From NCBI RefSeq assembly GCF_037042905.1, contig NC_087245.1, positions 33,978,001 to 34,038,000 of the forward strand: DNA of 60,000 nucleotides. Direction: 5' to 3'. Of the stretch, positions 523-54,749 are shown piece by piece. Within the stretch, counting starts at the first letter, position 1, and each line of letters starts with the position of its first letter. The stretch is from Lytechinus pictus. Its lineage: Eukaryota. Below the pieces are notes generated by a model. That model was given only the letters and a program-made list of their open reading frames with translations. It did no database searches and was not told the origin of the DNA. A program made the position numbers and the translations under genes.

Positions 523-1781
523 TGGTGCGGCAGCCCAGGAGATTTATTCAACCGAAAGCCGGACAAGCAAATAGCTGGATGACATTGACCCTGAAGTTTA
601 CAAAAAAGCATTGCTGCCGGGTTTTATCCGTGGTCTTCCACCAAAATGACGTAATATAATTATGACGTCATTTCAAAATGGCCCTATTTCACCATTTTTT
701 AGACATTCTACACATAGCATCAAGTCAATGGAAAATATCTCAGCCAAACCATGTTTGTGTCTTTTTAAACTTTCACAATATGTTGTTCAAGTAGTGCACA
801 AGTGACATGCAAAATTTCAGAAACACTGAGAAATGTTTACATATGCAAATTAGTTCATGAAATTTGCATATCATTAGTTTGGGGATCTCTTGCTTCAAAA
901 ATTGTCGAAGATCAATTCAGAAATCTATTTTTTTTTGGGTACTTTTTTGATATATTTCCTGTCAAGCATAATATTGTTCTCTTTATCATTTATATGTCAG
1001 TAATTGGAAATGACATTATAGACTGTGGTTTCAGCCCCCTTTTCAATATGATACGTACATAGAAATCATGCGTTTTTGCCTGTTTTTCACCATATAGCTG
1101 AGTTGTGTGAACGATACAGTATGTCTTTTTTATTGGTGTTTCCTGCATATTGCATGATATTAAATCTCCGAAACAACATATTTTCATCTTCATTATGTCT
1201 CTGCTATTAAATTAATGATTTCAGCAAAGATTGATCGCCCACTGGACAAAACTGGACAGTCTATAGGCTACGTTTTCAGCCTAATTTTCAACAACGAACC
1301 TATACCATGAATGACTGCATTATTGCAGTCGAGTCGGAAATGGGGGTTCATGTCCACCGTGTGTATTTGAGTTTTGTCAGACGTGTATCAATCAGATATG
1401 ATTATTTACGTCTGGGACCGACCTTTAACGTCACCATCCGAAAGACGTGACCAGGGCTCGAACCTCGAACCTCTGCATCAATTTGTAACTTCCCCACAGC
1501 TTGGATTATAGGCGCACACCACAACGCCCAGTTAAAATAACATAACCATCATAACATATATTTAATTAACATTTTGTATTGCCTGAAGTGTCTAGTTAAT
1601 GAATCCTGATGTCCCCTTTGCCAAATCATGTCCCACGGGGTTCAAAATTGATAACTTTGGCGGCCCTCTTGGATTTTTGTTATGAAAACCAATCATCAAA
1701 TTCAGGGTCCATGCCATCCATCTATGGGGTCATTTGCTTGTCCGGCTTTCGGTTGAATAAATCTTCTGGGCTGCCGGACTA
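523..1781. mobile_element. Non-autonomous TIR transposon with 3-bp TSD (TAT) and TAG...CTA-type termini (Academ-like)
   Basis: TIRs T(G/A)GT(G/C)CGGCAGCCCAG.AGATTTATTCAACCGAAAGCCGGACAAGCAAAT. Removing the element and one TAT restores the host motif GGGTGGCCTTATTTGCCCC. The superfamily call is an inference. Confidence 0.7.
1359..1532 (-). mobile_element. Short SINE with 7SL(Alu-domain)-like head, B-box and Deu-like core
   Basis: Minus strand: CTGGGCGTTGTGGTGTGCGCCTATAATCCAAGCTGTGGGGAAG...GGTTCGAGCCC...GTCTTTCGGATGGTGACGTTAAAGGTCGGTCCC...CAAATACACAC. Confidence 0.6.
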
Positions 1782-4265
1782 TATTTGCCCCACCTAAATG
1801 GGGCAAATGAGGCCGCCTGATTAAAACCTATTTCATGTTGCTTTTTCGAAGTAAAAATAGTTCAGTTGGTTTAATACAATCACTAAACATTTATTAGAAA
1901 CAATCATATTAACATTTAGTTATTTACCAAATGACCCTCATTTTATGAATAATTTATTAATCCTATCCAATATTATAGGGAAAAAAGATTCTCAGATTGT
2001 GTTTTCTGCTGTCATAGTTACATTTTTGTGTATCTACGTGTTTATCGATAGTTTACACATATACATTATATATAATCAAGTGTGATGATGCCTACACTGA
2101 ATTTCAAAGTTTTTACAGATGTAACTATAAAGTTTCAATTATGTATTAATCCGGGTGGCCTCATTTGCCCCATCAGACATGTCGAGTTCATAGACATCCA
2201 GTCAGAAAAAAAGGGAAAGTTGTGACATTTACTACGGTTCTGGCATGCAAAATAATACCTTACACAAGTAAACTAAGATAAAAGTTAATGGGTAGGTACA
2301 GTCCTCGCCTCTCTAAAGTGGCAATGCTACTTTCAAAATTTTGATTTGTATGTGTTGCTGGGTTTGTGATCCTCCTGGCCCTGAGCACTGAGCTGTGACA
2401 CGTTCTCTCTGCTAAAAATCTGTGCTGAAGAACCATGAGAACTGTCTCAAATACTACGCAAACGGCAACCCATTTGACCCTACCATTCTTTAGCAGTGAG
2501 CTAAAAACTTAACAAGTGGCATATTTTACCCCACCCCCATACTTTTTTTCTGTAAATATACTTGAAGGTGAGATCTGGTAATAATTAAAATCAATTAATT
2601 AGAGGTAGAATAACTAAGTTTCGGTTCCAATTTCACAACGATGTTAAATATTTTGCTCTTTTTTTCGTCGTCATACCCCTTTTTTTAGTTTTTGCAGTTG
2701 ATTTTTTTTCTTCTACACGATATTCATGAAACAAGAAGCACAAGGTTTAATAACAATAACCCTCCCATAACTTTGATCATTTTACAATGGGGGTGGGTGT
2801 AATACAGAGACCGTTGTGCTTCGTAATGCATCGCCTTTAGATCATGAAATAAACGAGTGTGAACTAGATGACAATGCGCATAAAACACCATGTAAGTAAA
2901 TCCTATCTAAATCGCATTTGGCACGTCATCTAGTCCAAGATAAATTCCAGTACATTATCAGTGCCTACACGTCACTCAGCATTGCGTGACTCTTGGATAG
3001 TTTGGGATATCCCTTACACAGTATTAAGTTTGAACGATATAAATATCGATGATCTTGACAATGATATGAAGATAATGTGTCAATTAAGGAGGATCCACTG
3101 TTGGGGTGTTCGTCATCTCGTATGAGGCCCAAATATTAGCTACCTTCATAATGTGTTCAAGTCAGTGCCTATTGCCTCGGACGTTATGACTTATTCCAAT
3201 ATATCCTTTCATGGTGGGTAATCTTATTATCCATATTTTAATCTAAATAAATTTATCGAGGCAATTATGGTTCAAAACGAAATAAAACATTTTTTATGTC
3301 TATATCCTTTTTTCTTTTATATCCTTTTATATCCATATCCTTTTTTTCATGCAGATGCATGGCAACAACCTCTTTTTCAAAGCCATGGAACGAAATTGGG
3401 CTATTTTTGCTCTATGAATCGGTGTTGAGGAACATAAACTCGATTAACCTTTAGACCCTAATAAATAGTGTAACGTCTCCACCCCGTCCTAGCTTTCTCC
3501 GCTCAAAGTACGCATCCGATCAACGCGCGGCAAATAACACAATAAGGTTTATCATTTACCTACCTTGCATTTCTTCTATACCTTACTATAATAGGATTCG
3601 ATCATCAGAAGCTTATTTCAGGCTCTATACCTTCCAGGCTAACCTATATCCTACATAATTATTGGGTAAGTCAACATTTTCATTACTTAATTCAATGTTG
3701 CAATGGTGATGAGATCAATCGAATCTGTTTTTTTCTTTACATTTATGTATTCTTTATGATTTCGAAAGATGTGTTTTCTCTGTTACACATGCCTGAAGTC
3801 TCAAATGATATCTGCGGGAATGTGTCTTAAGAAACTTTGATTAAAGATTAGTAGGCTCCCTGTAGGAATAGATTGGAGTAGTTTGCCAAGGTAGAGCACC
3901 GGAACACGTAGTATCTACCGGAAGACGTGGATTCAACATATGCCAATAATTTCTAGCAATATTGATCCCGTTTCCTTTGTTTTCGGGTGTTTTATAGGGA
4001 GTGGGGGAGGGATAATAAACTGTATTGTGTACCAGCTAGCAATGAGCTTGACCAAATATGACGGAATTCAATGAAATATTGAACACAAGCCTACTTGAGG
4101 AGTGGGGTGACAGAAAGTTCATGGAATTTTTGTCTCTCTTGATAATCTTTGCCAGGTAACGGCACAGATCATGAATTTATAATTAGATATGATCTTAAGT
4201 CTACCATCATGAATATACAGTCTAAAGCCCATTTCCCCTTTTCTATAGCAAAGTAGTAATGAGTA

Positions 4266-4547
4266 CACTGTTAGAAAATGTATCCTTAAAATAAAAGAAG
4301 TTGCTGCAGCAGAGTCTCGAGAACACCTGTAATCTTTACCAGATTGCGTAATCTTACAGGAAATTGGTATTTGGTGTATGGAACCTTAGAAATATCCTTG
4401 AATAAAACACCCTTTTCCCCTTTTCAAACAGACCTGTTCTATTAAATTGCAGAAAAATTCCTGTTTTATGAATTTACAGAATGATTCTGTTATTGCTTTC
4501 TGCAAAATCTTCTTTTTTCTGTATAATCAGGTTTTTTTTTAACAGTG
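4266..4547. mobile_element. CACTG-ended MITE, TA-flanked (second copy at 58118-58418)
   Basis: Termini CACTGTTA...TAACAGTG; near-identical body at 58118-58418. Confidence 0.8.
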
Positions 4548-7351: not shown

Positions 7352-10300
7352 ACATAAAAAAAGAGAAAAATAGGATAGGAAAAAGGTGAAATATACTATA
7401 TTTTCTCAAATGTGTCAAAAATATATCATTAAACAGATTTTAGTATCGAGGTCGAACAATTTCTCGCTCGCTTCTCTCGCTAGCAGTATTTTCCCCCATG
7501 CGCCATGTCTGGTCTGACCCACTCATTTTGGTACATTACGCCATCACTTGCGACCAACAGTCAGAAACACATTTCCTATCTGATTTATCATCACGGGTGT
7601 GGACACTTCAGTCATATCGGAGAGAATTTAGTCACCTCGAGTGGATAGGCCATTGACTGATTATGTTATCTTTATTTGCAAATATATTAATCGTTAAGTC
7701 GAAGTGCGTACAACAGTGGTGCTATATCATGTTGATACGGAAGGATTTTTAAGATTAGCAGTACACGCGTAGAAGGGTGTACTGGGGGCTCTGCCTCCCC
7801 CCTCCCCTCCCCACCCAAAAACAATCCATGACCAAGAAGAAAATATAAAGGAAAAGGGAAGGGGAAAAGGAAAAACGAGGGAAGGAAAAAGTATGATTTT
7901 ATCTTTGATATGTCAAAATCTATCCTAAAATTAGAATTGATTTTTTTTTGCTCGCTGGCGACTTACACCTTTATGCCATGGTGACCCTCAAAATCTTTGG
8001 CCATTACGCCACAACTCGGATCTATTCCAAGATATTCATATTTGTTTTGGGATGAAATCCTCGATGCTTTGTCATTGAATAAGTACTAATTGCCATTTTT
8101 GTATTATTAACTATATACGTCATAATAGTAATGAACACCGTGAAGAACGCGAATGTCCTTGAAGTAATAGATTTATTATTTCAATTTCGAAGTTCAGGAA
8201 CTTTAAGAATAGTTGAAAATCCGATGATACACGCTAAAATGCAATCATTCTTACTGCTCTCTGTGTCTGGTGTTTTTCTTATCTCTCCTCTTTTTTCTTT
8301 CTAGCCCTTTTTTCGATTTCTTAAAAATTATAGGAAAACCGGTGCCTCCCGATCCATTTTAGCTAAGCCAGTGTAACCTGGCTCGTAGTATGGGTGGGGC
8401 ACGAACTAAGATTGTGAGTTACCTATTGAACGCGCAGAGCGCGCTTGATAACCAATTATACTGACCTGAAATATCGACAATTTAAGGATTGTTTGTAGAA
8501 TATGAAGATGATGTTTATCTCACTAATTTAATAACGCGAGAGCAAAGCGCGAGCTTAACATTTTTTTTCAATTTAGAGGTTTTGAACTTTGTTTACATGT
8601 TTGAAAGTGATGAAGGGGATACATACCTCTGAAGAAAAAATCAAGTATGAGCTGAATTTTTCTAAGATTTAGACCTAAAAAGGGGAATTTCTGGGTACTT
8701 TTTATAATGTATAACCATGTACAGGATACGATTTTTTCATATATATTCAGACCATAAAAGGAAAATAGCATAAGCGCTTTTTGTGATCATGAACAATATT
8801 CACGTATCTCATTAAAAAATAGTCATGATGCTTGGAAGTGTAAGCAGAAATATTGTTTGTATATCATTTTGAAAGCGGAAAGTTTTGTTTTCTTTTTTTT
8901 TCTTTTTTTTTGGGGGGTAAGCGTCCCTAAGGCCTACCCCTTATATGTACGCCACTGAATGAACTATGATCATAAGTTTCATTCCACGATCACGGACGCA
9001 ATTGTCCAATGCCAAATATCTAATGGAGAGTAGGAGTGATGCCTAGCCTCGAAGAATTTGTTTTGGCCAGTGACGTATTGGCCAAAATCTTTGAGTGAGC
9101 CAGATACGGCGTATGGCGTAATAAAAAAAAACGACCGAGAAAAAAAATTCGACCTCGTTTATACAAAAGGAAAATATTTGTGATAGATTTCAAGATATTA
9201 AAATAATATATCCCACCTTTTTTCCTTTCATTTTCTTTATCTGTCCTCTCTTTCTTGGGCGTGTACGTTTTGGGGATCCAAGCTCCCCCTTCCATCTATA
9301 TAGGCCAGTGTTTTCTGCCTTATAATTTTCTAGCAGATCACATAATCGATTTGAAGTTGCTGGGAAATTCATTTTTGCGTGTTGTGGCCCCACACTTGTG
9401 TTTTATTTCTTAAGATAATTTTTATGCCAAGATCAATGATTCCGTAGTGCTATAAAAAAAAAAACATAAATACATATATTGGCATTCCAACTTGTCAAAA
9501 TTAATTTCTATTTTGTTTTTCATTGAGGACGATCCCCCTCCCCCGATCGGCGCCATGCAACTACCCCACCCTGTCCGCGATTTTGTAACATTGGAATATA
9601 GGAACGGAACCCCAGTATTATTGAATATCTACCAAAATTTTAACCTAAATTTTATTCATTTGATTTGTTTATTAATGCATTTATTTATTCATTTATTTAT
9701 TTATCTATTTCTTTCTTTCTTCATTTATTCATTTCTTTATTCATTAATGAAATATCCTTATGCAGGAAAAGATGCTCAGATTAACTGTTTTTAGCATGGT
9801 CCTGATAACGTAAAAATAAGAACAGTATAAAAGATATAAGTTAGGTTCTACAGATATAATGAATTGCCTACGTTAAAATCGGAAAAATTTGCGATAAATA
9901 AATATGATAAATTTACGAGGAATCGGTGAAATTAGAAAAGTTTTACTCCTATAATACTAGATAATACAATTACAGTAAAATAGAAAATAACGAGTGTGAT
10001 ACCATTATTCTCGGCAAACAAAATGACAAAACAAAATAATATGCGATTATGTCGTGGCTTTATTCAATAGAGATGAACGCTTCCCGAAATTGGTGTCACA
10101 ATCACATAAGTATAAAACATGGATATGAATACCTCTGATTAGAGACTTACATTCATGTATATCTGAAACCAACCGATAGCCTCGAATTAGCTCCCCGAAG
10201 GGGGGTTAAACCCCCGGCTAGAAGGCCCCCCTCCCAGAAAATTCAACGTTAAATTTCGCGGCTGCTTTCCCACTGGTTCTCTGCTAGCCGGACAGGAATA

Positions 10301-13159
10301 CCAGCACAGCTATGAACTACATTTATGAGCTACCGGCAAATCGGTGGATTACAGATGTCATACTTATATCATATAATATACATATATATATACCAGCCTT
10401 CCCGCATGAGAAATTGGGTGAGGCCTAAATTTCACGAAAAATATAAATGTATACAGAATACCAGCCTCCCCGCCTATGAGATCAGGTGAGGCCTAAACTG
10501 AAAGTTCGAGCGTGACACCCTTACATAAAATATAAATGTATACAGAATACCAGCCTCCCCGCCTATGAGATCAGGTGAGGCCTAAACTGAAAGTTCGAGC
10601 GTGACACCCTTACATTCAAATCTACAATTGCGTTCTTAAAGTACTATGTAAAGTTATAAATAAATCCCCTTCGTCTAGGTACCGAATGAGGACCCGATTC
10701 AATATGAAATATTAATCAACGTACATGGCATCAAAGTGGAAAATCTAATAACTAGAGGCGAAAATATAATTCACTGCTTTAAACACCTTGCAAAAGTGAC
10801 CATTGTGGATTAAAGAACATATGCCATGTCAATAATAAGACAATACAATTCATGTGAATTACCAATATATAACGAACACCCAGCCACAAAAACGGGTAAG
10901 GGCGAAAACCCACCTGACCACAGACCAAAATAGATCAGAAGGATAAAATTCCCTTACGGCCCACATTTCTAAATGCACGACGATCTTTGTATTGTTTTGG
11001 TGTGCGACCAGGCAAACTGCCTCCGGATTTGAATTCGTGTTTCGTTATATAAATCAATATTATATTAATGTAAGTAAACTAATTCAAATGTCCATTATCG
11101 ACAGCTCTACATCCCGTTATTCCATTCTGAACGAGCTGTACATTCCAATAAAACACAAATCAACTCTGAATGATACGTATAGCGTATCTTCATTCTCGAC
11201 CTTCTCCAACGCATGTGTTTAAACAATATTCCAACATCGTTTGACCCAAACGTACCGTTTACATGGGTGGTTGTTGGGGAGGAGGTGGGAAAATTACAAG
11301 CGAATATTTTGGACGTTCATCTCCGTTGAAAGCCAAGACTAAAATGAAGGATTTTTCGCGCCTTCACACCTAGGCGCGCGCGCCAAAACATGCGCGCTCC
11401 TTGCGCCCAGTACAAATTATTATCATTGTGCGCATAAACCAAACAGGCTGGCGCTCCATTGTGACGTATCACCTCGTCAACCGCGCCATTCCAAATTACA
11501 AATACCTTCATGACCTGGCATTGTTCACCGACTAATAAATCATTTTAAATCGCCGAGTCGTCTTTAAAATACATTATTCTCGGCAAACAAAATGACAAAA
11601 CAAAATAATATGCGATTATGTCGTGGCTTTATTCAATAGAGATGAACGCTTCCCGAAATTGGTGTCACAATCACATAAGTATAAAACATGGATATGAATA
11701 CCTCTGATTAGAGACTTACATTCATGTATATCTGAAACCAACCGATAGCCTCGAATTAGCTCCCCGAAGGGGGGTTAAACCCCCGGCTAGAAGGCCCCCC
11801 TCCCAGAAAATTCAACGTTAAATTTCGCGGCTGCTTTCCCACTGGTTCTCTGCTAGCCGGACAGGAATACCAGCACAGCTATGAACTACATTTATGAGCT
11901 ACCGGCAAATCGGTGGATTACAGATGTCATACTTATATCATATAATATACATATATATATACCAGCCTTCCCGCATGAGAAATTGGGTGAGGCCTAAATT
12001 TCACGAAAAATATAAATGTATACAGAATACCAGCCTCCCCGCCTATGAGATCAGGTGAGGCCTAAACTGAAAGTTCGAGCGTGACACCCTTACATAAAAT
12101 ATAAATGTATACAGAATACCAGCCTCCCCGCCTATGAGATCAGGTGAGGCCTAAACTGAAAGTTCGAGCGTGACACCCTTACATTCAAATCTACAATTGC
12201 GTTCTTAAAGTACTATGTAAAGTTATAAATAAATCCCCTTCGTCTAGGTACCGAATGAGGACCCGATTCAATATGAAATATTAATCAACGTACATGGCAT
12301 CAAAGTGGAAAATCTAATAACTAGAGGCGAAAATATAATTCACTGCTTTAAACACCTTGCAAAAGTGACCATTGTGGATTAAAGAACATATGCCATGCCA
12401 ATATATCTTATGACAACAGTGTTTAGGCGGCATAATTTGACAAATTACCGCCAAACGAGAATATATTTTATATATATGATCGGCCGCCAAACACTTCATT
12501 CATTTTTTAAGCCTTCGTTCATAATTTAGTCTAGTTTTGCATTAGCTGGCCAAGCTAAATCAGTTATCATGCATATGTAGTCAAGTAGGCCTCCAAGCCC
12601 TCCAATAATTTTAAATGAATTTAAAATATATCATCTTTGTATAAAATCTTTGTACAGCCTTGACGTCGCTGTCTTACATGACACAGTTACCTGAAGGCTG
12701 GCATTCTTTGCCTCTAGCTATTCTGGCTGATATAAGAGTGATCATTTTATATGCAGTATACCTGTTTTCTATTCTTGACCAACATACCAGCCCGTTTTAA
12801 ACCAGCATGAAATGACAAATACTTTGCACCTGAATATTTCACTTATTGCATTCCAAAACCAGATAGAAAAATTCAATTCAAGTATATGAACAAATATCCA
12901 TCTCAAGTATAATGAGAGCATGAAAAACACTTCAATGTATTCAGCTGTTGGAAAAATCTCCCAATAGAAATACATTAAAACATAACCGTGTCAGAACTTC
13001 ATTCACAATTAAAATCTGATTACCATGCGCAAAACTAAACAAAACATATGAAGGAAGACAAGATAATATGCCATTTGAAGTATCATGATTTTTATACAAA
13101 TCTATTGCAATCTTCAAAATTGAAATTCATTGCATCACTAATTTTGATAAGTTATCAAT

Positions 13160-20311: not shown

Positions 20312-21414
20312 GCCAAGACTAAAATGAAGGATTTTTCGCGCCTTCACACCTAGGCGCGCGCGCCAAAACATGCGCGCTCCTTGCGCCCAGTACAAATTAT
20401 TATCATTGTGCGCATAAACCAAACAGGCTGGCGCTCCATTGTGACGTATCACCTCGTCAACCGCGCCATTCCAAATTACAAATACCTTCATGACCTGGCA
20501 TTGTTCACCGACTAATAAATCATTTTAAATCGCCGAGTCGTCTTTAAAATACATTAACGTATTAAAAATTCCACTAAATTTTCGAAGGAAATTAGTCAAA
20601 TGAGCATTAATATTATATTAATACACCAGCATTAAACATTTTCCCGGTGCTTTTGAAAACGATTATTTCCCACCTGGTTTGTTTCCATTTGTCTAAGCGT
20701 GATCACATGGGTGAAATATGAAGGTCCAAGTCTTGAATCGCATTGATTAAACTGAAATGCGAATGGCATCCTCCTAGTACTCTATCAGGGTAAATAAATT
20801 TGAAAATAGACGCTATGATAAAGGTCAAGTGACACCTAATATCAACGTAACCATTTTATGCTCGCATTAATCATTCCTTAGTCAGTTTAATTTTGCTCTT
20901 CCTATTACGTATGTTTAATTATTAATAATATTTTCTAACTGAAACATCGTGCAGCTGCAGAGACTCAAGTAATATAACGTTTATATGTAGATAGATTAAT
21001 TTTAGATATTACACAATTTCAAGGATTTGTCATAAATCAACATCGGCAATTTATAATGGGCAGCCGAACATTCAATGTATTTCCAATCCAAAGGATTAGA
21101 AGGCTTAAATTCAAATATTTGGGCTTTGAATTCAAATCTCCATTGTTTACGTCTAAATTTAATTCTTGACTGATCACTATTCACAGCCGATCTTGATTTA
21201 TTTAACAATCATTAAAATCTAATGCGCCATAATCATGAGACCATTATCATTCGATTGTGCATCAGGCTCTGGTATAAAAAAGTTAGCGATTAATCGCTAT
21301 ATGAAATGGCCTATCAAGATCATCCTTGTATGTGCATTTCGTTCAGTAGACTGACAAGAAACCAATCTCTTTCAAAGTAGAAATTAATCGCTAACTTATG
21401 TGTTATGGGCCCTG

Positions 21415-21585
21415 GGGGCCGTTTCATAAAGCTGTTCGTAAGTTAAGAGCGACTTAAAGAACGACTGGTGATCCTTTCTTACGCGCTAAACCATCGCCAG
21501 TGAATATACCAGTTACCACAAGAAAGGATCACCAGTCGTTCTTAAAGTCGCTCTTAACTTACGAACAGCTTTATGAAACACCCAC
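21415..21585. mobile_element. Palindromic PIF/Harbinger-like MITE with CWG flanks (relatives at about 44525-44700 and 50036-50217)
   Basis: About 65-bp TIRs GTTTCATAAAGCTGTTCGTAAGTTAAGAGCGAC...; CTG and CAG flanks. Confidence 0.8.
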
Positions 21586-21781
21586 CAGGTCCGGTAAAGC
21601 GGAGGAGGTATGCGGAAGAAAGAAGGAAGGAAGGAAGGAAAGGGTTAAATCCATGAACATTTTTTGTGGATTTTTGAAGTTTTGCGATGTAATATGCGAG
21701 CAGCTCCCTCATTCGCCATGTGACATAAATTACATAAATGAGAAAACTGAGAATGATTTTACTTGTTCGCATTATAGTATG

Positions 21782-22079
21782 ATAATAATAATAACGGTAT
21801 ATTTACCCAGGGTAGCCACTTCAGTTCCGAAAATTGTTCTCCCAGCGGGCCCTGCTATTATTATATATTATTACCCGGTTAAGCACTGCAGCTAGGCTAC
21901 CTATTCAGCTTTTTCTGAGGAATTACTTCCTGCCGGTACCTATTTACCTCACCTGGGTCGAGTGCAGCACACTGTGGATGAATTCCTTGCTGAATGAAAT
22001 TACGCCATGGCTGGGATTTGAACCCACGACCCTCTGCTCCAAAGTCCGGAGACTAATCCACTGGGCCACGACGCTCCAC
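21782..22079 (-). mobile_element. tRNA-derived SINE (SURF1/Nin-type core)
   Basis: Minus strand: GTGGAGCGTCGTGGCCCAGTGG (A box), GGGTTCAAATCCC (B box), CTCGACCCAGGTGAGGTAAATAGGTACCGGC core, (TTA)n tail. Confidence 0.85.
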
Positions 22080-22737: not shown

Positions 22738-23474
22738 TTAAAAACCCCAAAGTGTATATACATTAGTCATCGTATTTAGCGAACAGTATGTACAGACATC
22801 CGTTATGTTGCTAGGAACGAAATATCGATAACAAAATCGTAATGTTTGATACTGAACGCAGTCCGAATCAAATTCACTTCAAAAAGAGCTACAGAATGGG
22901 AACAACAAAAGTAAGCAGTTTTTTTATTATTTGTTTTTGTTTCTGGGGGAAGTTAAAGAAAGAGGAACTCAACCCAAATGAGAAGTTGTTTTAATGATCC
23001 AAAGAGTAGTCCTTTGGATATGTCACAGCCTGCTCACCAATTTGTGATTAATAATCTCGTGGAGATCTTATTATTCTTAAATCATAACTTCCTTATTCTT
23101 GGTTCCTTCAAAGTTCGCTACTCTGTTTTTTTTTTCGTATTTTTTTCCTTCATATTAAAACCTGAAATACAAATGTCGGAGTCTAGCACTTTATATACTC
23201 TTGACCATTCCATCCTGAGCCCTGTAATTTCTGCTATATACCTAATTCGACAATAAATTAAGGTCCATTAGTCCAAAGGTATATTATCATTGTATCTTTG
23301 CTGTGGTATGATATTGCTGGTTTTGAATACAACGCCTGTAAAATTCATTAGGTCAAACTCCTCTGCATGTATATTCCCAGTCATTGTCCAGACAACTCCA
23401 AATATGACGTCAATTTAAATAATGTTGTCGTTAATAGTTCATGACATATGATCAGGGGTAATGTCCGACAATAT

Positions 23475-23778
23475 GGCCCGTATTCTGAAGTCAGGTTTAA
23501 CTTGGACCATGGTCTAAATGTGCTAAATTATGGGAAGCCAAAAGTGTCAATTGTTTTATTAAGTTGTACGTTTCTTATGTTTACTGTGTTCTTTCCTGAT
23601 TCATCGATGGTGAAGACAATCATCTATTTATACTTCATAGACAATTATGAATGATTTGAGAGCCAAATGAGCTGAAACGTAATATATCTTAGTGATAAAT
23701 GTAACAATTGGCTATCCATACTTAAACCAAAACTTTAAAACTCGAGTTTAAGTTACACCCGACTTCAGAATACGGGCC
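23475..23778. mobile_element. Harbinger-like MITE (copies at 35442-35753 and, inverted and degraded, about 50550-50852)
   Basis: TIR GGCCCGTATTCTGAAGTC ... GACTTCAGAATACGGGCC. Confidence 0.8.
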
Positions 23779-24811
23779 TACAACTATACCGTATAAACCG
23801 AGTTATATTATTCGTGAAATCCTAATATGAAAGAAGAGGTTGTATCGTTCTCAAGGCGGCCTTGAATTAACCCAAACAGCCGATCCCAATCTTTAAACGT
23901 CTTACGTGCATTGCTCAAAATAGTGTATAAAGTTGATGATGAGTTTCAATCATAATTGCAGCAATGGGAATACATTCAAGTTTTTTGCGACATGTCTGTT
24001 GAATTAGTCGCCAAGGAGAGGAAAATAAACAACGTTTTTCGAAAGGCTTGAATACAAAATTGATATGTCGAACACTATAAAATGGGAAACCCAAATAACT
24101 CACAATATAATTACTGTTTATGACATTGTATTGATATTCGATGAAGGTCATAAAGAGAGCCAATTTCTTAATAGTCGGTGAAGGGCCAATTTTACTGATT
24201 AGGATAAATCCCATGTAAGTATAAAAAGGGAATTTCCACCCCTTCCAAAATGGGTTGATTTATCAATGATGATGATGATAATAATAATCATAATAGCTGG
24301 ATTAATACAGTGCTTTTTGCCTGAGGATACAAATCAAACAGCCATGATGTGAACATTTCAATCAGAATAAGATAGGATATCAAAGAGTCGTGAAATAATC
24401 AAGCTTATACCTATTTTCAAATAATCGTTCCATTAATTTTTCGGGTTGTCCTTTATTTCATTTCGGTGACAAATTGACGTTGGTTTTACATAGCAAGAAT
24501 TGAAGTTTTGCCTTCTCCCCCAAAGTGAACTGCTTGTATTAAAATAAACGTATGGAAGAAGACAAAAAAATTATTCGTGAGGCTAAATAAAGCATTCCTC
24601 TAACATCTACATCTCCTTTGTCTTAATATTCGCATTCCTTGTGATAAAATATTGGCTCATGCAACTATAAAGTGATATGGGGATTTGCCCTCCCAAATGG
24701 TCTAATTCTGAAATATTTCGACTTAATGCGTTATAAATCAATAATTTTACCTCTGTACTCTCTTTGTTGTTTTTGTCCTAGTTATCGTCTCAATAGGAAG
24801 CACAGACAAGG

Positions 24812-25014: not shown

Positions 25015-28000
25015 GTAGGTAATGTAGATATTACAGAAAACTTGTTAAAGTTTATTTTTTATATTCATTTTCTCCAGATTCATTGAATTCTTAATCTATC
25101 CCAGTGACTATAATTCTATGTGAACAATAATGATACAGTTCATTTCATTCAATTTTATATCACAAAATAACATTTACATGAACAGTATGTATCCATTGAC
25201 ATGACATATACATTTTCACGATGTAACATTATTGTACGCAATAGTCAAGATGGTATGACAATAAAAGCGGAAATTTTACAGCTATACAGTGCGTCGAAAA
25301 AATGTCCCTCTAACATAGGGCTGAAGTAATTCCAAAATGTGGTGGTATTTTCAATCAAATGCACATGGGTAGAAAGCTTATTTCATAATCTAACTTTTAT
25401 GAAAATTTCATTGGACTCGCTTCAGCGGTTTTGGATACACACTCTGTTACGCAACAGTGATGCATTTCAGCCCATTCCAAGTTTGCAACACTACTGTATT
25501 TCTGCATTTTCTTTAACATGTTAACACCGGCACTTTACCATCCAGGATCTGAGCAGGGACATTTGCCTGATCAATCCAGGCGCTCATCAAATCATAAACT
25601 TGAGCATAAGCAGAAGGGTGATAACCATCAAGAATAAAGTTGCTACACGAATCAGTGCACCAACTTGAAAGAAATACGAATGATGGATAAGTACAATAAG
25701 CTGAACAATGAAGAGCAAACCACATGTGTATCACACTTTGAGCCCATTAACTTAATGATATAAAAAAAAGAATGAAATCAAGAATGTATTATTGTTGGAA
25801 TTAGGCATGAAACGCACAATGTTTTGTCTCTATCATTGTGCATCTCCCATTATCAAACTTGAAATGAATTGTCAAGAACTCTTGTTGCCCTTTTTAACAT
25901 GCGCAAGGATGTCATTTGATGAGCCTGGTTAGGCCATGGAGATTTCCTAGTCAGCTCAGGGAATTCCCTGATCAAATTCTGAATGATCAAGGGCTTGATA
26001 TGCTAGGCAGTGCAGAACCAGCAGTGGTAGCAGTGATGTATAATTATGTATGCAAACTTGGAATGGGATGAAAAGCACCATTGATACATAATAGACTGTG
26101 TATTCCAAACCGCTGAAGCGAGACCAATGATTTTTTTTAATAGAAGTTAGGACTTGAGAAGAGTTCCTATTACCATACATTTAATTGAGAATAATTTTAT
26201 TTTTTTCAATTAATTTAGCCGTTTACCTCTGTATCAGAGGGACATTTTTTTGGGGGGCGGGGGTGCGCGCTGTATCAATAAAGCCTTCAGTGGGGAAAGG
26301 GGTGTCTGCACAGCGACAATGAACACAAAACAAATTTATATATAAAATAGAACGAGTTAAAAACGAACATAATATTATGTTGATGGTAATGACTGAGATG
26401 ACAATGACTGATAATAATAACCCCTATAATGGTGATGCGGATGAAGGCAACGATTCTGATGATGAAACTGATGTTAAGGATGATGATGGTGATGATGATG
26501 ATGATGATGGTAATGTTGATGCATGGTAATGATGATGATGATGATAATGATAATGCTGACGATGACGATGTTGATAATGAAGATGATGAATATAATCAAT
26601 GATGATGATAATGGTAATGATGATGATGATGATGAAGATGATAATGATGATGATGATGATGATGATGATGATGGTAATGATGATGATGATGATGGTGGTG
26701 GTAATGATGATGATGATGATAATGATGATGATGATGGTGATGATGATGATGAAGATGATGGGGATGATGATGATGATGATGATGGGGATGGTGATGGTGA
26801 TGGTGATGATGATGATGATAATGGTAATGATGATGATGATGATGATGATGATGAAGATGATAATGATGACGATGATGATGGTAATGATGATGACGATGAT
26901 GATGGTGATGATGATGATGATGAAGCTGATGGTGATGATGATGATGATGGTGATGGTGATGGTGATGATGATGATGATAATGCTGATATTGATGATGATG
27001 ATGATGATGATGAGGATGATGATGATAATGAAGATGGATGGAGGATGAAGCAGGTAAAGAAAAACAGGAAAAAAGAAATGAGATCATGACAGGAAAGTCT
27101 TGGTCATGTGACTTTATAATACCTGACATGCTCGATTTCTTTCACACAGATAAAAAAAAGGAACGTCTTGCGCCCCCACGTTGAAAATCGAAATACCTTG
27201 GTCCTGCATTTGCTTCTCCTTCAACTCTCTTTAAAAGAATATTAATACAATACTTTTCTTCAAAATGTGTCTAATATAGCAGCTTTTTTGCCATTTCGTA
27301 ATGAACTGTTGATTCACACAATATTCCGTCATTTTTTCTTCACACCTTACCTTTGTCACTTACGGTGTGCATTCATATTTGCTTTGATTGTTAAATGTAC
27401 TAAGTATCCTCCAAACAATCATTGTTTTAAGTCCCTATATTTAGTTTTTTATATTATCATATAGGCCTAATCATACTCAAATATCATTTGTATATTGCTT
27501 TTTTGTATGTTTTTGGGGCGTCGTGGTCTAGTGGTTACGACTCTCGTCTCTCAATGATAGGGACGTGGGTTCGAATTCGAATCCCAGCCATGGATTGTTT
27601 TCCACATTGTGCTGCACTCAACCCAGGTGAGGTGAATGGGTACCCAGCAGGATTAATTCCTTGAAATGCACTGAGCTGCTTGAGCTAAAACTGGGGTAAT
27701 GATAATAACAAGGCGCCTTGAAAAAGAGTATTTCTAGAGAGTTGGTGCAATATAAATGCCTATTATTATCATAAAAATTATATTATGTTTGTACATACAT
27801 ACATGCATACTCATTGTTTTTAGAGATGGAAGAAATAAACGGAACTGGATATTATTGTCCCTTGTTTTCATTCCCTCTATCACTGTAAAAAAAACACCAG
27901 TTTAAAATCAAACAGGAGTTGTTTGACACTGACTAGTGTTGTTTAAACATGTTGAACGTGTGTTAGCCCATAAGCTATATACACAAACCGATGTTTCAAT

Positions 28001-30831
28001 ATTTTCCTTATGTTCTACTACGTGTATATATAGATGACGGGCTGGTGTTAAAAATAAATGGTACTTGTGGTAATCATTTCAAAATGGGTGTGTACAGAAT
28101 CCAATGAAATGACCACCCAAGTGTATGTATGAACAAAAACATATGTGTGCCAAAGGATTCTGAAAGAATCTGTTTAACTGCTAAGCAATTAGCAAAACCA
28201 ATTATGAAATCCCAGCCCGATGTCTTGTTTTTTCCCAAGCAATTTCAGTATAATGTCCCACCTGTGCTTATTTGTGTCGGTGAGCTACAGTATAATTGCT
28301 TTTCACCTTAGATTTATCATGGTTTCACAAAGTTCAGTATTATTTAAGTGTTCCACATCTACTCTAGATCTAAGATTAACCTATAGAGACGCTCCCATGA
28401 TGCAATCAGTGTTTACTCTTTCATTGGCGTATTTTTGCAATCACTACGCGGACGCCTTCTACAACGCACCAATTCCTTTGAAAATACAAGTCAAATCACG
28501 GTGGACAGCTGCGAGGCTTTTGTCGAAAGTTGGTGGACCGGGAAAGCAGATTGTCCGAAGATTCGGACCGGACGAAAAAAGAATGCAAATGTGTCCTTTG
28601 TCTAGAGTCAAGGACGACACTGCTGTTTTGTCATTTAAGCTATTTTGACAAAAGGTTTTCTGCGTTATAGAAAGCGTCTACGAAGTAATTGCGAAAATGC
28701 CCTTAGGGCTTGATGGGTGCGTCGTGGTCTAGTGGTTCTGACTCTCGCCTTTCAAACAGAGGGTCGTGGGTTCGAATCCTAGCCATGGCGTGTTTTTCTT
28801 CAGCAAGAAATTTATCCACACTGTGCTGCACTCGACCCAGGTGAGGTGAATGGGTACCCGGCAGGAGTAATTCCTTGCATGCACTGAGCGCCGGTGATGG
28901 TAGCTCGAGCTAAAGCCGGGGTAATAATAGCAGCGCATTGTATATCATCAGGCAAAAAGCGCTCTATAAATCCAGCTATTATTATTATTATCTTTCAATT
29001 AACACCGCGGTTTTGTTGTGTGTAATAACTGTACCCCGCATCCTAGCTTTACCCCCCCCCCCCACCCCCTCTTCTCCCTCCCCCTCCAAGTTCCTGAATT
29101 CGACAATGTCTCTTTGCATGTTCTTTTCATATCTGTCTTATACCATAGGGCATTAACACGAGATCCCCACGTTGCAGGAACGCCACAGAACAAGAAACTA
29201 GCTGATGACATCCTGGCTAATTGGACAAGCTATGGATTTGAAGCGAATATCTACGCTTACAACGTCTTACTCTCATTTCCATCAACGGTAGAGGGAGAAG
29301 ACAACGCGGTATGTCTTTTCTTCTAAATCTAAGAGACTTTTTGTATCCTTTCTTTAAATTGTTTTACTAACTCATACGTGGATTGAAAATCATTGAAGTT
29401 ATACTGGATTAAACAGGAGATGCACACTTTACAATGATTAAAAATGTCTTGTATTAATAGGTTATGATAAATCATCGATGATCCTCAGTTTTTTTTTATT
29501 CTGGGATCCAGTTTATAATTTATTTGTATATCGATTCATTTTGAATATATATAAATCTAGCAGTGTTTAGTGTATAAATTCATCTGTCTACCCATTGCTA
29601 AGTTGTTTTATTGATTTATCAAGTTTATTTATTCATCCACCCATTTATTTACTTATTTCTTAATTCATTCGTTCTTATTCTTTAATTTGAATTGAATGTT
29701 TATGTTTCAGTTTGACTATTTTATTCATTTAATCATACTAATTCATTCATTTGCTAATTCCCTGAAGTGTCTTCATAAAATTCAAAATTTCTTCAAGTTC
29801 ATCTTTTTTTACACAACAGCATCACATTTTCTGTACTTTTTCCAGTCTTTTTCGTTTTTATATGAATTTATAGATATGGATTCAGCTATATACCTTCATG
29901 TACATGAAAATCTGTACTTATAAAATAAATACATATCTACAACTCGTCATCCCATACAGATCAAAGTCTTCAACGGGAGCGACGTGATCTTCCAGAGTCA
30001 GTTAAAAGAGGCTCCATTAGACGATCTATCCCGGGAAAAAGAGGACCTTATTTTACCTCCCTTCAACGCTTATTCTGCCTCGGGCGTACTCTCGGTATGG
30101 TTACGTTGTCATGGTGATGAGGAGAATGATGATGAGGAGAATAATGATGTTTATGAAATTATGATGGTGGTGATGATGGTGGCGGTGGTGATATTGGTGA
30201 TGGTGATGATGACGATAGTGATGGTGATGATAATGATCATGATTATGGTGATGATAATGATGATGACGATGATGAGGAGGTTGATGATGATGATGACGAT
30301 AGTGATGGTGATGGTTATGATAATGATGGTAATGATGATGATGAACATGATGATGATGATGGTGATGATAATGGGGATTTTTATTATTATTATTTTATTT
30401 TGCATTTTTAAAAACATAGAGAATACAAACAAATCAGATATGATGATACATGATAGAGAAAATAAGACCTGGATGAGAGTTGGAGAGGCTGCCTGGGTAT
30501 GGAAAATGCTAACTTAATAGCCACAACCCACAGGTCTTCCTCCCCAAACCTCCCCAACTCCATCCAGGTCAGAAAACTAATGGTAAAAATAAAATGAAGA
30601 TATTTAGAATCGGCAAAATACAATGGTCATACATGTGACTTGGTCACTTCAAGCCAACCCCCACAATACCTCCCGCAATCACATCATTATGTATCTACAA
30701 GCATTTGAATGATAAGCATGAAACATTAAAGCAATCGTAAATTTAAAAATATAAATATATGTACTGCATCTATCATAAGTAATGGGATATAAGACGACAC
30801 GATGATTATAATGATAATGGTGATGATGATG

Positions 30832-30864
<33 letters not shown>

Positions 30865-33800
30865 ATGATGATACTGATAACAATGATTATAATTATAATT
30901 ATAATAACAATGATAATAATAATTATAATGATGATGACATTACAATGATAATAATAAAGTTCCCCACTATACCATAAGATGTTCAGTTCAATGCTTAATT
31001 AAATTCAAGCAGCTCTGGAAACATGTCATTGAAAAAATCACTCCGCCGGTGGAGTATATATATAGAGAGCATAGAACAAAACTGAACTATTTCAGAAATC
31101 GTCAATGAAAATAGAATAAAGATTACCATTATCGTTATCCTCATAATCTTTAACATCTGTCCTTATTACTATGTGTGGTGTATCTTTATATCGGTTTTAG
31201 GGCGATCTTGTGTATGTGAATTATGCTCAACTCTCAGACTTTGAAGACCTGCAAGACCTCAATCCTCCCGTCAACCTTACTGGCAAGATCGCTATTGCAA
31301 GATATGGTAAATTATACAGAGGAGACAAGGTAAGTTCAATTTAATACAGTGCAAAAACTCCGGTGTTCATTTAACACCAGCCCGGAATCTATATATGTCC
31401 ACACCAGAGAAGTGTTAAACAGCACCAGTTTCGTTTTGGTCTAACACCAGATAGGTGTTTATACAACACCAATTAGTATTAAAACAGCATCGGTTTGATT
31501 CCAAACTGGTGTTGTTTCAATACCTCTCTGGTGTGGACATATATAGATTCCGAGCTGGTGTTAAATGAACACCGGAGTATTTGCAGTGTACAATCCTGAT
31601 TACATGGATTATCCGATTTAAAACAATTTAGTTTTTCATCTGTTTGATGTATTCATTTGTGTATTCTTTATCTGTTAACTCATTTACAAACATATTATGT
31701 TTGATGCCTTTTTGTATTGATACATTTATTTGTTCATTCATGCATTCATGCATTTAAACATAAATTAAGTTCCTGTTTGTATTCATAATCACCCTATCTT
31801 AATACAAATGTAGTTGATAACAATTGCTCTAAATGGTAGTTATATGGTGTATACAAGTTTTCTCTCTCCGGAACTGTGTTGCATCATCATCTCTCTACAT
31901 TTAACGAGTATCATGCTAGTTTCTATGTACTTTGATTACCACAAGTTTGCAGTATACAATTTTCAAGTAATTAACCTTAAGAAGTTGAAATTTTGTGTGA
32001 ATATCACTCGAGTCACAATAGAATGGCTGTGGAGTCTTTATCAATCAAAGAGAGGTTTTATTTTTTCTCTCTTCTGCAAGGCTGCACGATTATACTCCAT
32101 AAAGAATATTGAAAGTTTTCATTTCCAACTCCCCCAACAATAGCAGGAATTTCAACACGTTCAATGCAAGTTATCCAATATAAACTATTTGGTATATTAC
32201 ATACATATGCTAGGACATCAACATACGTAGTAGCATGCTACCATGTTTGACTATAAACAATATAGTGATAGAAGTCTCATTTCGTTTTATATTAGAAATC
32301 GTCATAGGCCCGTTTTCTTAAGTCCAATACAGTCAATGCATCAGGCTCCGAAGTAGGAGTGGGGATATGTGCCCTCTCTTTTGGTAACCATGTATTCTGT
32401 TAGAAAAATGAGCCCCCCCCCCCCACACACACACACAATTAAAACATGCATTCTCTCAAGATTGTATGGAGTGGTGATCAAAAGTTAGTGAACCCCGTCA
32501 GAAAATGAAAAGATTTAAAGTAGTCAAGTTCTGCCATATGTTTCAGATATTTAATTGTAAAGTCAGGTGATAAAATATTACATTCAATATATTTTTTCTG
32601 AGCTCTCCGAACATTGTAGTGTTGTTATTTACCTTTAACACTCGGCATGAATGAATGAATGAATTCATTCATTTTGTGGTGGGGTTCACTAATTTTTTTA
32701 GCACAAGTCTATAAAATCATGATTTGATACATTTGTGTACATACATGTAAATTATTATTTGTTAATTATCATACACAAAATACGATTGCTTTCTAAATAA
32801 AATCCATCCAGGCTAAGTTCGCTGCACAGTTTGGAGCAGCAGGTTTGATCCTGTATTCCGACCCCAAGGATTATGCCGTTGAGGGCGCTGAAACATATCC
32901 TGATGGTTTATACCTACCTGGTACTGGAACACAGAGGGGTAGCTGCTTAGATGGCAACGGTGACCCTCTAACTCAAAGCTATCCTGCAATAGGTACGTAC
33001 GTTCCGCTTAGATTGTGGTTATGTGAGTGTGTGGGAGGAGGAAAGGTGGGTGTCGAGATCTGTGTGTGTTTAGAAGGCCCCGTTTATAAGTGGGTATACA
33101 TAGATCGGGGACACATATGGATGCGTTTATGTGTACGTGTAGAATTCAGTAGGTTTTGGAGGCATTGTGTGTGTGTGTGTGAGGGTGTATGTGTAATATC
33201 TCATCAATTTTCGGGAGAGGCAGACGTGTGGTGTGGGTGTGTGATATATGATTCTCACAGGTTTGGTAGAGGCAGTCATGTGGTGTGGGTATGTGATATA
33301 TGATTCTCATACTAGGTTTTGTAGAGGCAATCATGTGGTGTGGGTGTGTGATATATGATTCTCATAGGTTTGGTAGAAGCAGTCATGTTATGTGGGTGTT
33401 TGATTATTATCATAGGTTTGGTAGAGCAGTCATTTGGTGTGGGTGTGTGATATATGATTCTCATAGGTTTGGTAGAGGCAGTCATTTGGTGTGGGTGTGT
33501 GATATATGATTCTCATAGGTTTGGTAGAGGCAGTCATTTGGTGTGGGTGTGTGATATATGATTCTCATAGGTTTGGTAGAGGCAGTCATTTGGTGTAGGT
33601 GTGTGATATATGATTCTCATAGGTTTGGTAGAGGCAATCATGTGGTGTGGGTGTGTGATATATGATTCTCATAGGTTTGGTAGAAGCAGTCATGTGATGT
33701 GGGTGTTTGATTATTATCATAGGTTTGGTAGAGGCAGTCATTTGGTGTGGGTGTGTGATATAATTATGATTCTCATACTAGGTTTTGTAGAGGCAATCAT

Positions 33801-49641: not shown

Positions 49642-50220
49642 AGAGGCCAACTCGTTAAATTTAATACTTTCACAGTGTCATGCAAACGAAATATTTATCA
49701 GAACACATTTTGCTACCATTTAGTCCTTTAGGTCGGCGACCAATTCGCTCTTTGTTGCTAAAAAGATATTACTCAAATTGGGAAAATAAATCTGAAAGGT
49801 CGTCATCGCTGCATTATTGGGTAGCTTTCCTTTTTTTTTTTTTACTTCAAATGAGAAGACTAACTTGGAAAACCATGAAAAAAAAATCGGCGCATGTCTG
49901 AATGTAAACCATATTGGACTTTGATGCATCCATTCGGATGAGAGATGAGTGGATTGACACTGGGTTTGGGATTGGGAGTTAGGGTTCCTCTGTTAGCTTT
50001 GGGAAATAGACCTTCCTAACATCAAAGTCCAATCAGGTGCCGTTTCGTAAAGCTTTTCGTAAGATAAGAGCAACTTAAAAAAAAGACTGGTGATCCTTTT
50101 TCATGTGGTAAATGATATTCACCACAAAATGTTCATTGGTAATTATCTCGTAGAAAGGGTTTCCAGTCGTTCTTTAAGTCACTCTTATTTTATGAACATC
50201 TTTGTGAAACACCCACCTAT

Positions 50221-50493: not shown

Positions 50494-52196
50494 CAGGACT
50501 AGTCTGAATGCCACAGCTATGAGCCAACGCTAAATATTCACACGGACACATTTTCTGCAGTCGGGTTTAATTCAAATTTTGGTTTAAAGTTATGGTTTTG
50601 CTATGGATAGCCAATTATTGTGACACCAATATCTAACAGTACGGATTGAATTTACTCATTTGACAGCAAAGTCCTTCATAACTTATTGCGAAATATAATA
50701 GGATAGTTGTCTTCACCATTAAAGGATGAGGGAAAGAATGGGTAAACACAAAAAATATTCAATGAAATCAAATTTTTTGACATTTTGGCTTCTCATAATT
50801 TTTTTCAGAGTTAGACCATGACCTAAGTTAAACTGGGCTTCAGAATACGGGCAATAGAGTATGTTTTTCTTTTCCATTTAGAATCATTCTCCAATATTTC
50901 TCTTTTATAGAGATTTTGTTATCAGAATAATATAAAGCAAATTGATTTGTGCGTTTCGCGTTGCATGACTGACGCATGGGGCTAGGTCTGTAGTTTTGTG
51001 TACTTGATTAACGCGAACGATCATATCGACGTACTCTAAATGATATATTTTACTAATAATGCATATTTATGAATGTGTGTTGGCAATGCTGTGCACTCGA
51101 GGGTTTTTTCGTGTTATTGCGAATACCTGAGATACCTGCATCGTCAATAACACCATGAATTTAAAAATGTGCATTATTTGTTTTATAAAACGGGTGGGCA
51201 TTGTAAAGTTGTAGTGGAAAGGTGCTGCAAAAAATGAATAGTGCTGCATAAAAAAAGTGCACGGCTGGGAGGTTGTGTAAAATTAAAGCATGAACACGTG
51301 ACTTGTATACGCGCTCACTATTGGCTGCATCCTTGAACCCGTTTTATACAAGTCGTTAGCAAAAGGTATAACACTTTACAAATAGTATTTGACATAGCAA
51401 AACGTTTCGCCGTGTATGTGCAGTGTACAATAAAGCAATACAGTAAGCAGTACGTATATCAGATTTACAGATTGGTTGTATTTTGGAAAAGATTTTCTGT
51501 ATATATATATGATTTATGGGGATGTGGGTATAGATTGATTGTACAGGAAACAAACATTAGTCCCCTATGTCTTTTACCAAGTTGGAAACCGGGTTATTCA
51601 AATTCATCTTCATCTAAGTTTCTGTCAAAAGGTTAAAGCACATTTTGTCCAGAATTCAATGTTATTTACATGTCTGTACAAATAAATATTTTATATCAAG
51701 TTCACAGTAACCATACAACGTTTACTTTATTCAATTTCATAGTTGTGTTGGTTCGGAAAAATGACTTTAATATACATCATCAGTTTTTTTTAGATAGAAA
51801 TCATCTTTGATGTTGTTGTTATATACCAACCCACCAAACACTTAATCCTACACATTTACTAATTGCTTGTCCATGCATGTAATATAGCTTCCATTTGTAT
51901 TTGGAAAAATAAATAAATGGCTAAAATGATGAATTTTAATGACGAAATGAAATTAAACTGATCGTTACTTTCTGTACATTAATGATGCATTTTCGATAAT
52001 AAAAACGATGATTATAAATAAACCCTTCTTTTCCTCAGTCTGTAATTGTGGTTAATTCGCTGACAAATTGTCAAAGTGACCAATGATTTTATATTTCGTA
52101 ACATTTTTTTACAGATAAATGGCGCTATACAAATGTTGTTCATCATCGTCACCAACAAGCTCTTCATTGCATCGCGTTGGTGCTATCATGCATTTT

Positions 52197-54565: not shown

Positions 54566-54749
54566 TCAAACGGGTTGCAACATGTAAGCTGCTGACTGGA
54601 TGAAATAGGTGACCTGAGCCAACTCCATTTTTACATATTCCCATTTTTCAGGATCGGGATTGATATCAATTTCAAACATGGCGTCCACGATACCCGCAAA
54701 CTTTTCCCCGGCGTACGAGTTCTTGCTGCTGGGAGCGAGGATGACATGT
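54566..54749 (-). CDS. Gene B terminal exon
   Basis: gacag|A; HVILAPSSKNSYAGEKFAGIVDAMFEI...YMLQPV*. Confidence 0.94.

Follow-up and report, generated by a model that had tools for sequence, protein, structure and literature searches.

The 174-bp element at positions 1532 (start of the head) to 1359 (end of the tail) on the minus strand of the window, that is, of the whole 60,000-nucleotide stretch of DNA analysed, very probably belongs to a chimeric 7SL-headed SINE family that arose by head replacement, a family of Lytechinus-like sea urchins that appears to be young and high-copy. The 5′ ~45–47 nt of 7SL RNA, comprising an A box and the SRP9/14-binding 5′ Alu domain, would have taken the place of the 5′ half of the tRNA head in an older tRNA-SINE. 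What would remain of that SINE is the 3′ half of the tRNA with the B box, a short body of the Deu/Nin/Inv type, a 3′ stem-loop and an (AC)n tail. Four points are direct observations: the element is modular, it is repeated at interspersed places, its ends are sharp, and its body also occurs under other heads. A preliminary description had read the locus as an invertebrate SINE that occurs in many copies, carries a 7SL/Alu-domain-like head and is separate from the tRNA-SINEs of the same window, and the present analysis supports this interpretation. By its 7SL-derived 5′ end the element may be counted broadly as a SINE1, but it has neither the canonical Alu-type build nor a full Deu domain.

Structure of the Element

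All the pieces named in the preliminary description (head, B-box-like motif, Deu-like stretch and CA tail) were found again at their places on the minus strand. The features are as follows.

1488–1532, minus strand: 7SL (SRP RNA) 5′ Alu-domain-like head, element nt 1–45, aligned with positions 1–44 of the Rfam Metazoa_SRP model; it contains the closing helix, helix 3 with loop 3, the U-turn, and helix 4 with loop 4
1519–1528, minus strand: putative 7SL-type A box, element nt 5–14, by comparison by eye
1446–1482, minus strand: tRNA 3′-half-like segment (anticodon-loop side, variable region, T arm), nt ~51–87
1464–1454, minus strand: B box GGTTCGAGCCC, inside the tRNA 3′-half-like segment
1415–1451, minus strand: 5′ part of the Deu domain (the portion common to Nin-DC and Inv/alpha), by alignment by eye
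1378–1413, minus strand: predicted 3′ stem-loop, a candidate LINE-recognition tail
1359–1366, minus strand: short (AC)n tail, the 3′ boundary of the family according to loose ends in sequencing runs
1356–1358, plus strand: 3′ copy of a possible, weakly indicated 3-bp target duplication; the same three letters stand at 1545–1547
1533–1547, minus strand: 5′ junction, probably made up of the possible target duplication (1545–1547) and 12 extra letters

As SINEBase defines SINEs (PMC3531059), the element is short, interspersed and non-tandem, with a few head-to-tail joints also present, and it has the simple-repeat tail of SINEs, (AC)n at 1359 in all four sequencing runs considered below. It falls outside another SINEBase requirement, an identity of at least 60% to tRNA, 5S or 7SL over at least 60 nt (PMC3531059): the SRP-like part measures 45 nt and the tRNA-like part ~37 nt, each less than 60 nt, and jointly ~85 nt resemble Pol III RNAs. 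The short CA tail is confirmed and ends at 1359. At the 5′ junction, letters 1544–1537 duplicate the flank at 1558–1551. The possible target duplication is only 3 bp long and is a weak sign of insertion, one contig joining 1349 to 1545 with a single copy of it.

The 7SL-like Head

The head has Metazoa_SRP as its best Rfam match, with model positions 1–44 on 1532–1488 at 25.2 bits and an E value of 2e-5 in a 91-nt search (1470–1560). In a 501-nt search the match scores 25.6 bits (E 8.6e-5), and in a search of the whole window its E value is 0.01. The cmscan comparison proposed in the preliminary description thus comes out for SRP, which tops the matches and is not outscored by tRNA over nt 1–45. 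The gathering score of Metazoa_SRP is 70 bits vs. ~25 bits here, as expected with 44 of the 299 model positions covered, and the apparent descent from 7SL is judged against the Rfam consensus alone. By our own count, 33 of the 44 aligned positions are identical to that consensus; pairs 1 and 3 of the closing helix are altered on both sides relative to it, and pairing is retained. The ungapped alignment with the 7SL string quoted in the preliminary description was reproduced by eye, with 25 identities over 35 positions and 8 of the 10 differences being transitions.

The 5′ edge of the element was set independently by read depth and joints, and the SRP match starts within 1–2 bases of it. Compared by eye, the A box agrees at 8 of 10 letters with the one shown for human 7SL in PMC7245038. 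The remainder of the element adds just 0.4 bit to the SRP score (25.6 vs. 25.2), so only the 5′ Alu domain of 7SL is present.

Five copies of tRNA-headed SINEs in the window, at 21918–22079 on the minus strand and at 27515–27704, 28715–28987, 45388–45658 and 46540–46757 on the plus strand, represent one family or more, have A and B boxes and AT-rich tails, and were used as controls. Their first 9–12 nt resemble the start of the 7SL-like head. Two of them, put through the same Rfam search, gave no SRP match, so the match of the head is specific. One of these two gave a marginal tRNA-Sec match (E 8.2) and the other no tRNA match; since genuine tRNA-SINE heads yield a marginal tRNA match or none, the absence of a tRNA match for the head says little. 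The SRP match, the negative controls and the majority letters of the family, which stand nearer to SRP, together indicate a 5′ part derived from 7SL, with the Rfam consensus as the reference.

An ordinary tRNA-derived Deu/Nin-type SINE (SINE2) that resembles 7SL by chance, for instance through a 14-nt insertion into a tRNA-SINE start, is unlikely. It would account for the similarity of the first 9–12 nt to the window tRNA-SINE starts (11 of 12 letters for one copy, with 76 of 2000 shuffles as good and hence not significant), for the MAFFT alignment that puts the head onto the window tRNA-SINE heads with a 14-nt gap, and for the tRNA-like character of the rest of the head; the missing Rfam tRNA match means little against it. 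However, nt 1–45 show no significant similarity to the five tRNA-SINE heads (76 to 1070 of 2000 shuffles were as good), whereas the SRP match spans 44 positions with pairing kept. Moreover, the tRNA-derived A box and D arm of a SINE2 are lacking, although a tRNA 3′ half is present, and the family majority shifts toward SRP at nt 15, at nt 24 and in loop 4.

The proteins SRP9/14 bind 7SL near a triad of G4, U23 and G24, and the two loops pair through GGC/GCU (PMC12265939). In the window copy, nt 24 is A, nt 15 is U, and two loop-4 letters are missing relative to the run majority; this copy thus departs from the triad and loop letters that the majority letters keep in all four runs, and its head folds no better than shuffled sequences (z 0.21). 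With G24A and the loop-4 deletion, it is probably a weakened or dead copy. The G24A change reduces SRP9/14 binding (PMC11581171). Since U-turn mutants (G24C and G25C) still pulled down SRP9/14 in lysate (PMC12265939), G24 is not an absolute marker of binding.

The B Box, the tRNA 3′ Half and Loci with the Same Body

The B box named in the preliminary description is present at 1464–1454, but the head as a whole proved to be chimeric: only its 5′ ~45–47 nt are SRP-like, and the B box lies in a tRNA 3′ half. To judge from the sequence, the B box does not derive from 7SL. The linker 1487–1465, taken with the B box excluded, matches the tRNA-SINE head at 46540 in register at 14 of 17 positions, as good a result being reached by 1 of 2000 shuffles, and the segment of 46540 aligned with it is the anticodon-to-variable region. 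For the tRNA-SINE at 22079 the match is 13 of 16 (9 of 2000 shuffles); two more window tRNA-SINEs match more weakly (57 and 86 of 2000), and the fifth is not significant (340 of 2000). Because the linker is tRNA-like and nt 1–45 are not, the junction within the head can be placed at about nt 47–50, just past the closing helix.

A scan with a 26-letter core pattern brought up three loci in metagenome contigs (L001, L002 and L003) and no matches in viral contigs or genome contigs. The loci, L001 at 375–481, L002 at 325–487 and L003 at 172–372, are SINE-like, with three different heads and with tails ending in CA or CCAA repeats. Each is collinear with the urchin element over a stretch that starts three letters upstream of the B box and runs as far as the tail, with identity at 86 (L001), 96 (L002) and 93 (L003) of 108 positions, 26 of which were fixed by the pattern; the L003 alignment carries one 9-nt insertion. 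The 7SL head is absent from all three: their own heads are unrelated to it (322 to 1358 of 2000 shuffles as good) and have no SRP match in Rfam. ARAGORN found no tRNA in the window or in L001–L003, nor did Rfam find one in L001–L003, so describing the heads of these loci as tRNA-like rests on A- and B-box-like motifs seen by eye; tRNA-type A-box motifs were seen in L002 and L003. A match of 9 of 10 linker letters to L003 was dropped as not significant.

A canonical Alu-like SINE1 would consist of 7SL with a central deletion, both halves of the Alu domain and a 7SL-derived B box. A wider cmscan search did place the 3′ end of the model on 1456–1440, yet this extension is worth 0.4 bit, with non-standard pairing at 6 of 15 pairs. 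Here the element also aligns collinearly and without gaps with the B-box region of L001–L003, as well as with the tRNA-SINE heads. The combination of 5′ and 3′ 7SL segments around a central deletion with a 7SL B box is not found in the element, and such an origin is very improbable.

The Deu-Related Body and the 3′ End

A core of Deu type had been recognized downstream of the B box, and a part of it stands. Segment 1451–1415 agrees by eye with AmnSINE1_HS at 28 of 37 columns of the Deu alignment in PMC7245038 (Fig. S4), where the domain is printed with a length of 131–142 nt. The 5′ ~37 nt thus match, but the remainder of the domain is absent, except perhaps for one further short motif, so the label of a Deu core was overstated and no full Deu central domain is present. 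The Deu 5′ part is common to Nin-DC and Inv/alpha (PMC4758252, PMC5786205), and its position after the head and its extent fit the Nin-DC and Inv-alpha descriptions published there, the comparison being with the descriptions.

A nested stem-loop is predicted at 1413–1378. It is mostly invariant among the four sequences, with two pairs broken in L001, and the four-sequence body alignment contains no compensatory change or useful covariation in it. Folding energies of head and body were no better than those of shuffles (z 0.21 to −1.5). The tail sequence has no match elsewhere within the window.

A Repeat Family in Sequencing Runs

The within-window repeat search found no second copy in the 60 kb. 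Four of 24 listed runs, coming from four studies, were aligned to positions 1140–1690: X4 and X21 (organism A), X12 (organism C) and X9 (organism B). Of the 24 runs, 20 have just a small share of the sequence, no RNA run is listed as a holder, and the evidence given here comes from the four aligned runs. These runs may not be from the species of the window (best word share 0.12). In X4 the summed contig depth, which is not a copy number, as overlapping short contigs inflate the values, is 87 in the bin 1539–1557, 1,866 in the bin 1330–1348 and 1.0–1.2 million across 1368–1500, and the same block of depth covers the element in X12 and X9. Depth declines toward the 5′ end of the element, most strongly in X12, X9 and X21, which may be due to loss of alignment at the deletion of the window copy, to 5′ truncation, or to sister families with other heads.

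Before 1359, loose ends were found in 173, 162 and 35 contigs and in 797 reads, with a mutual agreement of 0.43–0.46. Because they are dissimilar to each other yet all end in (GT)n on the plus strand, they are read as the (AC)n tail followed by unlike flanks. Flank-bearing contigs number more than 100 each in X4 and X12, where contigs do not equal loci and the species may differ from that of the window. In X4, 4,076 of the 6,080 aligned records are at least 95% alike, flank repeats included, which suggests that the family is young. The multi-copy family presumed in the preliminary description is therefore supported by runs under three organism labels, and the sequence is not single-copy. In X4 and X12, position 1533 is also joined to 1359 via short CA-like spacers, as tandem copies or as insertions into the family’s own tail.

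The majority letters of the head, counted as summed depth among the differences listed, differ from those of the window copy. At nt 24 (position 1509) the majority is G, with 398,562 of 403,365 in X4 (102 contigs), 33,109 of 36,155 in X12 (60 contigs) and 1,946 of 1,972 in X9 (21 contigs); in X21 it is G in 174 of 205 reads. At nt 15 (position 1518) it is C, with 139,944 of 142,852 in X4, 32,851 of 34,973 in X12 and 1,352 of 1,393 in X9, and with 104 of 140 reads in X21. Loose ends at 1495–1498 provide two further letters of loop 4; in organism C they read AC, whereas in organism A they are A and one unresolved letter. The majority letters restore the G4-U23-G24 triad and the GGC/GCU pairing, so the family is more SRP-like than the window copy. 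A young 7SL copy would retain the triad and the loop letters even without selection.

Every one of the four runs contains a 7-nt deletion at 1457 (in X21, 311 of 1,137 reads). Part of the family is without the 7-nt direct repeat; collinearity with the tRNA-SINEs is seen in the form that has it. Several contigs connect both flanks without the element, e.g., 1349 to 1545 and 1358 to 1572; since the flanks are themselves repeated, such contigs may be other copies of an older repeat that hosts this insertion. In an RNA run, 2,167 of 12.9 million records aligned, both directions alike, with 83% running into unlike sequence and no pile-up of starts at the element. These reads are attributed to host read-through and speak neither for nor against Pol III transcripts.

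The same data bear on the idea of a one-off chimeric 7SL retropseudogene or of contamination by human Alu, which is scarcely credible. Its attractions are the single copy in the window and the second Rfam match, mir-1268, which we take to be an Alu-derived family. It is contradicted by the coverage of the head by 102, 60 and 21 contigs under three organism labels, continuous with a non-Alu body; as to contamination, the head differs at 10 of 35 positions from the human 7SL string quoted earlier, and the flanks belong to an urchin locus.

Surroundings of the Element in the Window

Inverted arms at 525–598 and 1698–1779, ~1.1 kb apart (48 nt at 96% and 28 nt at 86%), bracket the SINE, and the depth of the flanks is raised; the SINE may therefore sit inside an older non-autonomous DNA element. 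Farther along, two convergent genes resemble NAALADase / glutamate carboxypeptidase II, one at 24812–49638 on the plus strand and the second, more diverged, at 54569–58648 on the minus strand. The NAALADase-2-like protein of Lytechinus variegatus is placed on the plus strand in 18 pieces over 24812–49638, 14 of them at 83–100% identity, and its identity to one exon is 90%; the other four pieces probably overrun exon ends or are less conserved. The host accordingly appears to be a sea urchin closely related to L. variegatus, and perhaps a different species. Long degenerate tandem arrays with a strong strand skew lie within the first of these genes (33144–35436 and 42290–43755).

Three short repeat families were noted, the first at 23472–23780, 35439–35755 and 50553–50856, the second at 4256–4547 and 58109–58418, and the third at 21411–21590, 44520–44698 and 50036–50218; the first and third have self-inverted ends and are MITE-like. 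An 832-bp pair at 99.9% (10003–10834 and 11572–12403) and a 245-bp pair at 100% (11332–11576 and 20312–20556) represent very recent duplications or assembly artefacts. An open frame of 182 codons on the plus strand, 59245–59793, has a motif that is presumably of the tyrosine-recombinase type (DIRS or Crypton).

Proposed Mechanism and Its Meaning

In the proposed mechanism, Pol III would transcribe the element from a hybrid promoter formed by the 7SL A box and the tRNA B box ~55–65 nt downstream. The 5′ domain of the RNA would fold like the Alu pseudoknot, bind SRP9/14 and bring the RNA to ribosomes, and a LINE reverse transcriptase reading the 3′ stem-loop and the tail would insert the element by target-primed reverse transcription. 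By analogy with known Alu domains, binding of SRP9/14 by the 5′ domain and carriage to ribosomes are somewhat more probable than not. The head swap would then give a minimal SRP9/14-binding module a borrowed B box.

It is also conceivable, though with a lower probability, that the 7SL-derived head is a mere donor of the A box, that SRP9/14 has no role, and that, as happens in stringent SINE–LINE pairs, the 3′ tail suffices to recruit the LINE. The same body and tail have spread under the other heads of L001–L003, so the 7SL head is dispensable for mobility, and the triad and the loop pairs would be kept by a young 7SL copy in any case. On the other hand, an A box requires just ~15 nt, while the piece kept here runs as far as model position 44 and the closing helix of the 5′ Alu domain, the unit reported as sufficient in PMC12199147; furthermore, the triad and the loop pairs are kept by the majority letters under all three organism labels.

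Should the head indeed be selected for SRP9/14 binding, an echinoderm would offer a case of ribosome hitch-hiking that relies on a tail-specific LINE other than L1, and sister elements joining a tRNA head to this body would be a natural control for the contribution of the Alu domain. Elements that combine the body with other heads make this contribution to a SINE testable in a model animal by head swaps.

Whether the family is the first 7SL-headed SINE outside vertebrates, with a new build that unites a natural “minimal Alu” (the 46-nt SRP9/14-binding domain) and the B box of a tRNA half, is evenly balanced. If so, the echinoderm family would be the fourth independent origin of 7SL SINEs and the first outside vertebrates, reached by a different route. 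What is new in the present work is the run evidence under three organism labels, the test of the tRNA 3′ half and the loci with the same body under other heads.

Comparison with Known Systems

The known 7SL-derived SINEs had been listed in the preliminary description as those of Euarchontoglires, hagfish and amphioxus, and an amphioxus “Alu” is reportedly the subject of one paper. Euarchontoglires and hagfish keep their place in this list, amphioxus is absent from the accessible text of PMC7245038, PMC13023118 and PMC10886601, and Urop of shrew moles has to be added. According to these sources, 7SL-derived SINEs are limited to supraprimates, hagfish and one shrew mole genus (PMC7245038, PMC10886601, PMC13023118). 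Two of the papers, PMC10886601 of February 2024 and PMC13023118 of February 2026, are reviews whose authors curate SINE collections; in their accessible parts the known cases all arise via a similar central deletion. Among the matches listed in a literature search by titles and abstract openings, none described a 7SL SINE in echinoderms or in any other invertebrates. Sea-urchin SINEs are named as Meta, CORE or Deu types, and none is called 7SL-derived in the available portions of PMC4824008, PMC4758252 and PMC3531059; the available portion of PMC11481361 likewise contains nothing on a 7SL-derived sea-urchin SINE. An automated, unclassified consensus of the family may well exist in Repbase, Dfam or SINEBase.

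A close counterpart is SINE1-1_EBu of the hagfish Eptatretus burgeri, in which a 7SL head was likewise placed independently, via a chimera, on an older tRNA-SINE body, and which shares the non-mammalian host and a microsatellite tail other than poly(A) (PMC7245038). Unlike the urchin element, SINE1-1_EBu has in its head the first 96 nt of 7SL together with the 7SL 3′ end, i.e., the whole Alu domain with its own B box (PMC7245038), whereas in the urchin element just the 5′ ~45 nt are SRP-like and the B box comes from the retained tRNA half. The bodies differ as well, that of SINE1-1_EBu having RTE-derived parts (PMC7245038) and that of the urchin element being of the Deu/Nin type.

Alu, B1 and Tu of Euarchontoglires and Urop of the shrew mole have a similar 5′-terminal Alu domain with the A box, the U-turn triad and the loop–loop letters, and the leftmost unit of Tu is of tRNA or dual 7SL/tRNA origin (PMC13023118). 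In contrast to the urchin element, they arose when ~183 nt were lost from the middle of 7SL, retain the 3′ strand of the Alu domain and exploit L1 by way of poly(A) (PMC13023118); the urchin element has neither the 7SL 3′ strand nor an A tail, and its host is an invertebrate.

The engineered 46-nt minimal Alu domain, SA46/AY46, corresponds to the urchin head both in the 7SL span covered and in its 5′-terminal place in the RNA (PMC12199147, PMC11760393). In HeLa cells, such a 5′ Alu domain of 46 nt is enough for retrotransposition and for the binding of SRP9/14 (PMC11760393, PMC12199147). SA46 needs an external promoter, unlike the urchin family with the B box of its tRNA half, and its authors consider that the missing B box likely barred such a truncated form from evolutionary success (PMC12199147). 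The urchin family looks like a natural way round this limit.

Finally, the Deu, Nin-DC and Inv SINEs, among them the 5S-headed Deu SINEs and SINE2-3_SP of Strongylocentrotus purpuratus, resemble the urchin element, by their published descriptions, in the 5′ ~37 nt of Deu after the B-box region, and in the Deu superfamily the exchange of heads on a conserved body is already known, with 5S replacing tRNA (PMC4824008, PMC4758252, PMC5786205). The urchin element differs from these descriptions in that most of the Deu domain is absent and in that a 7SL head appears to have replaced the tRNA 5′ half.
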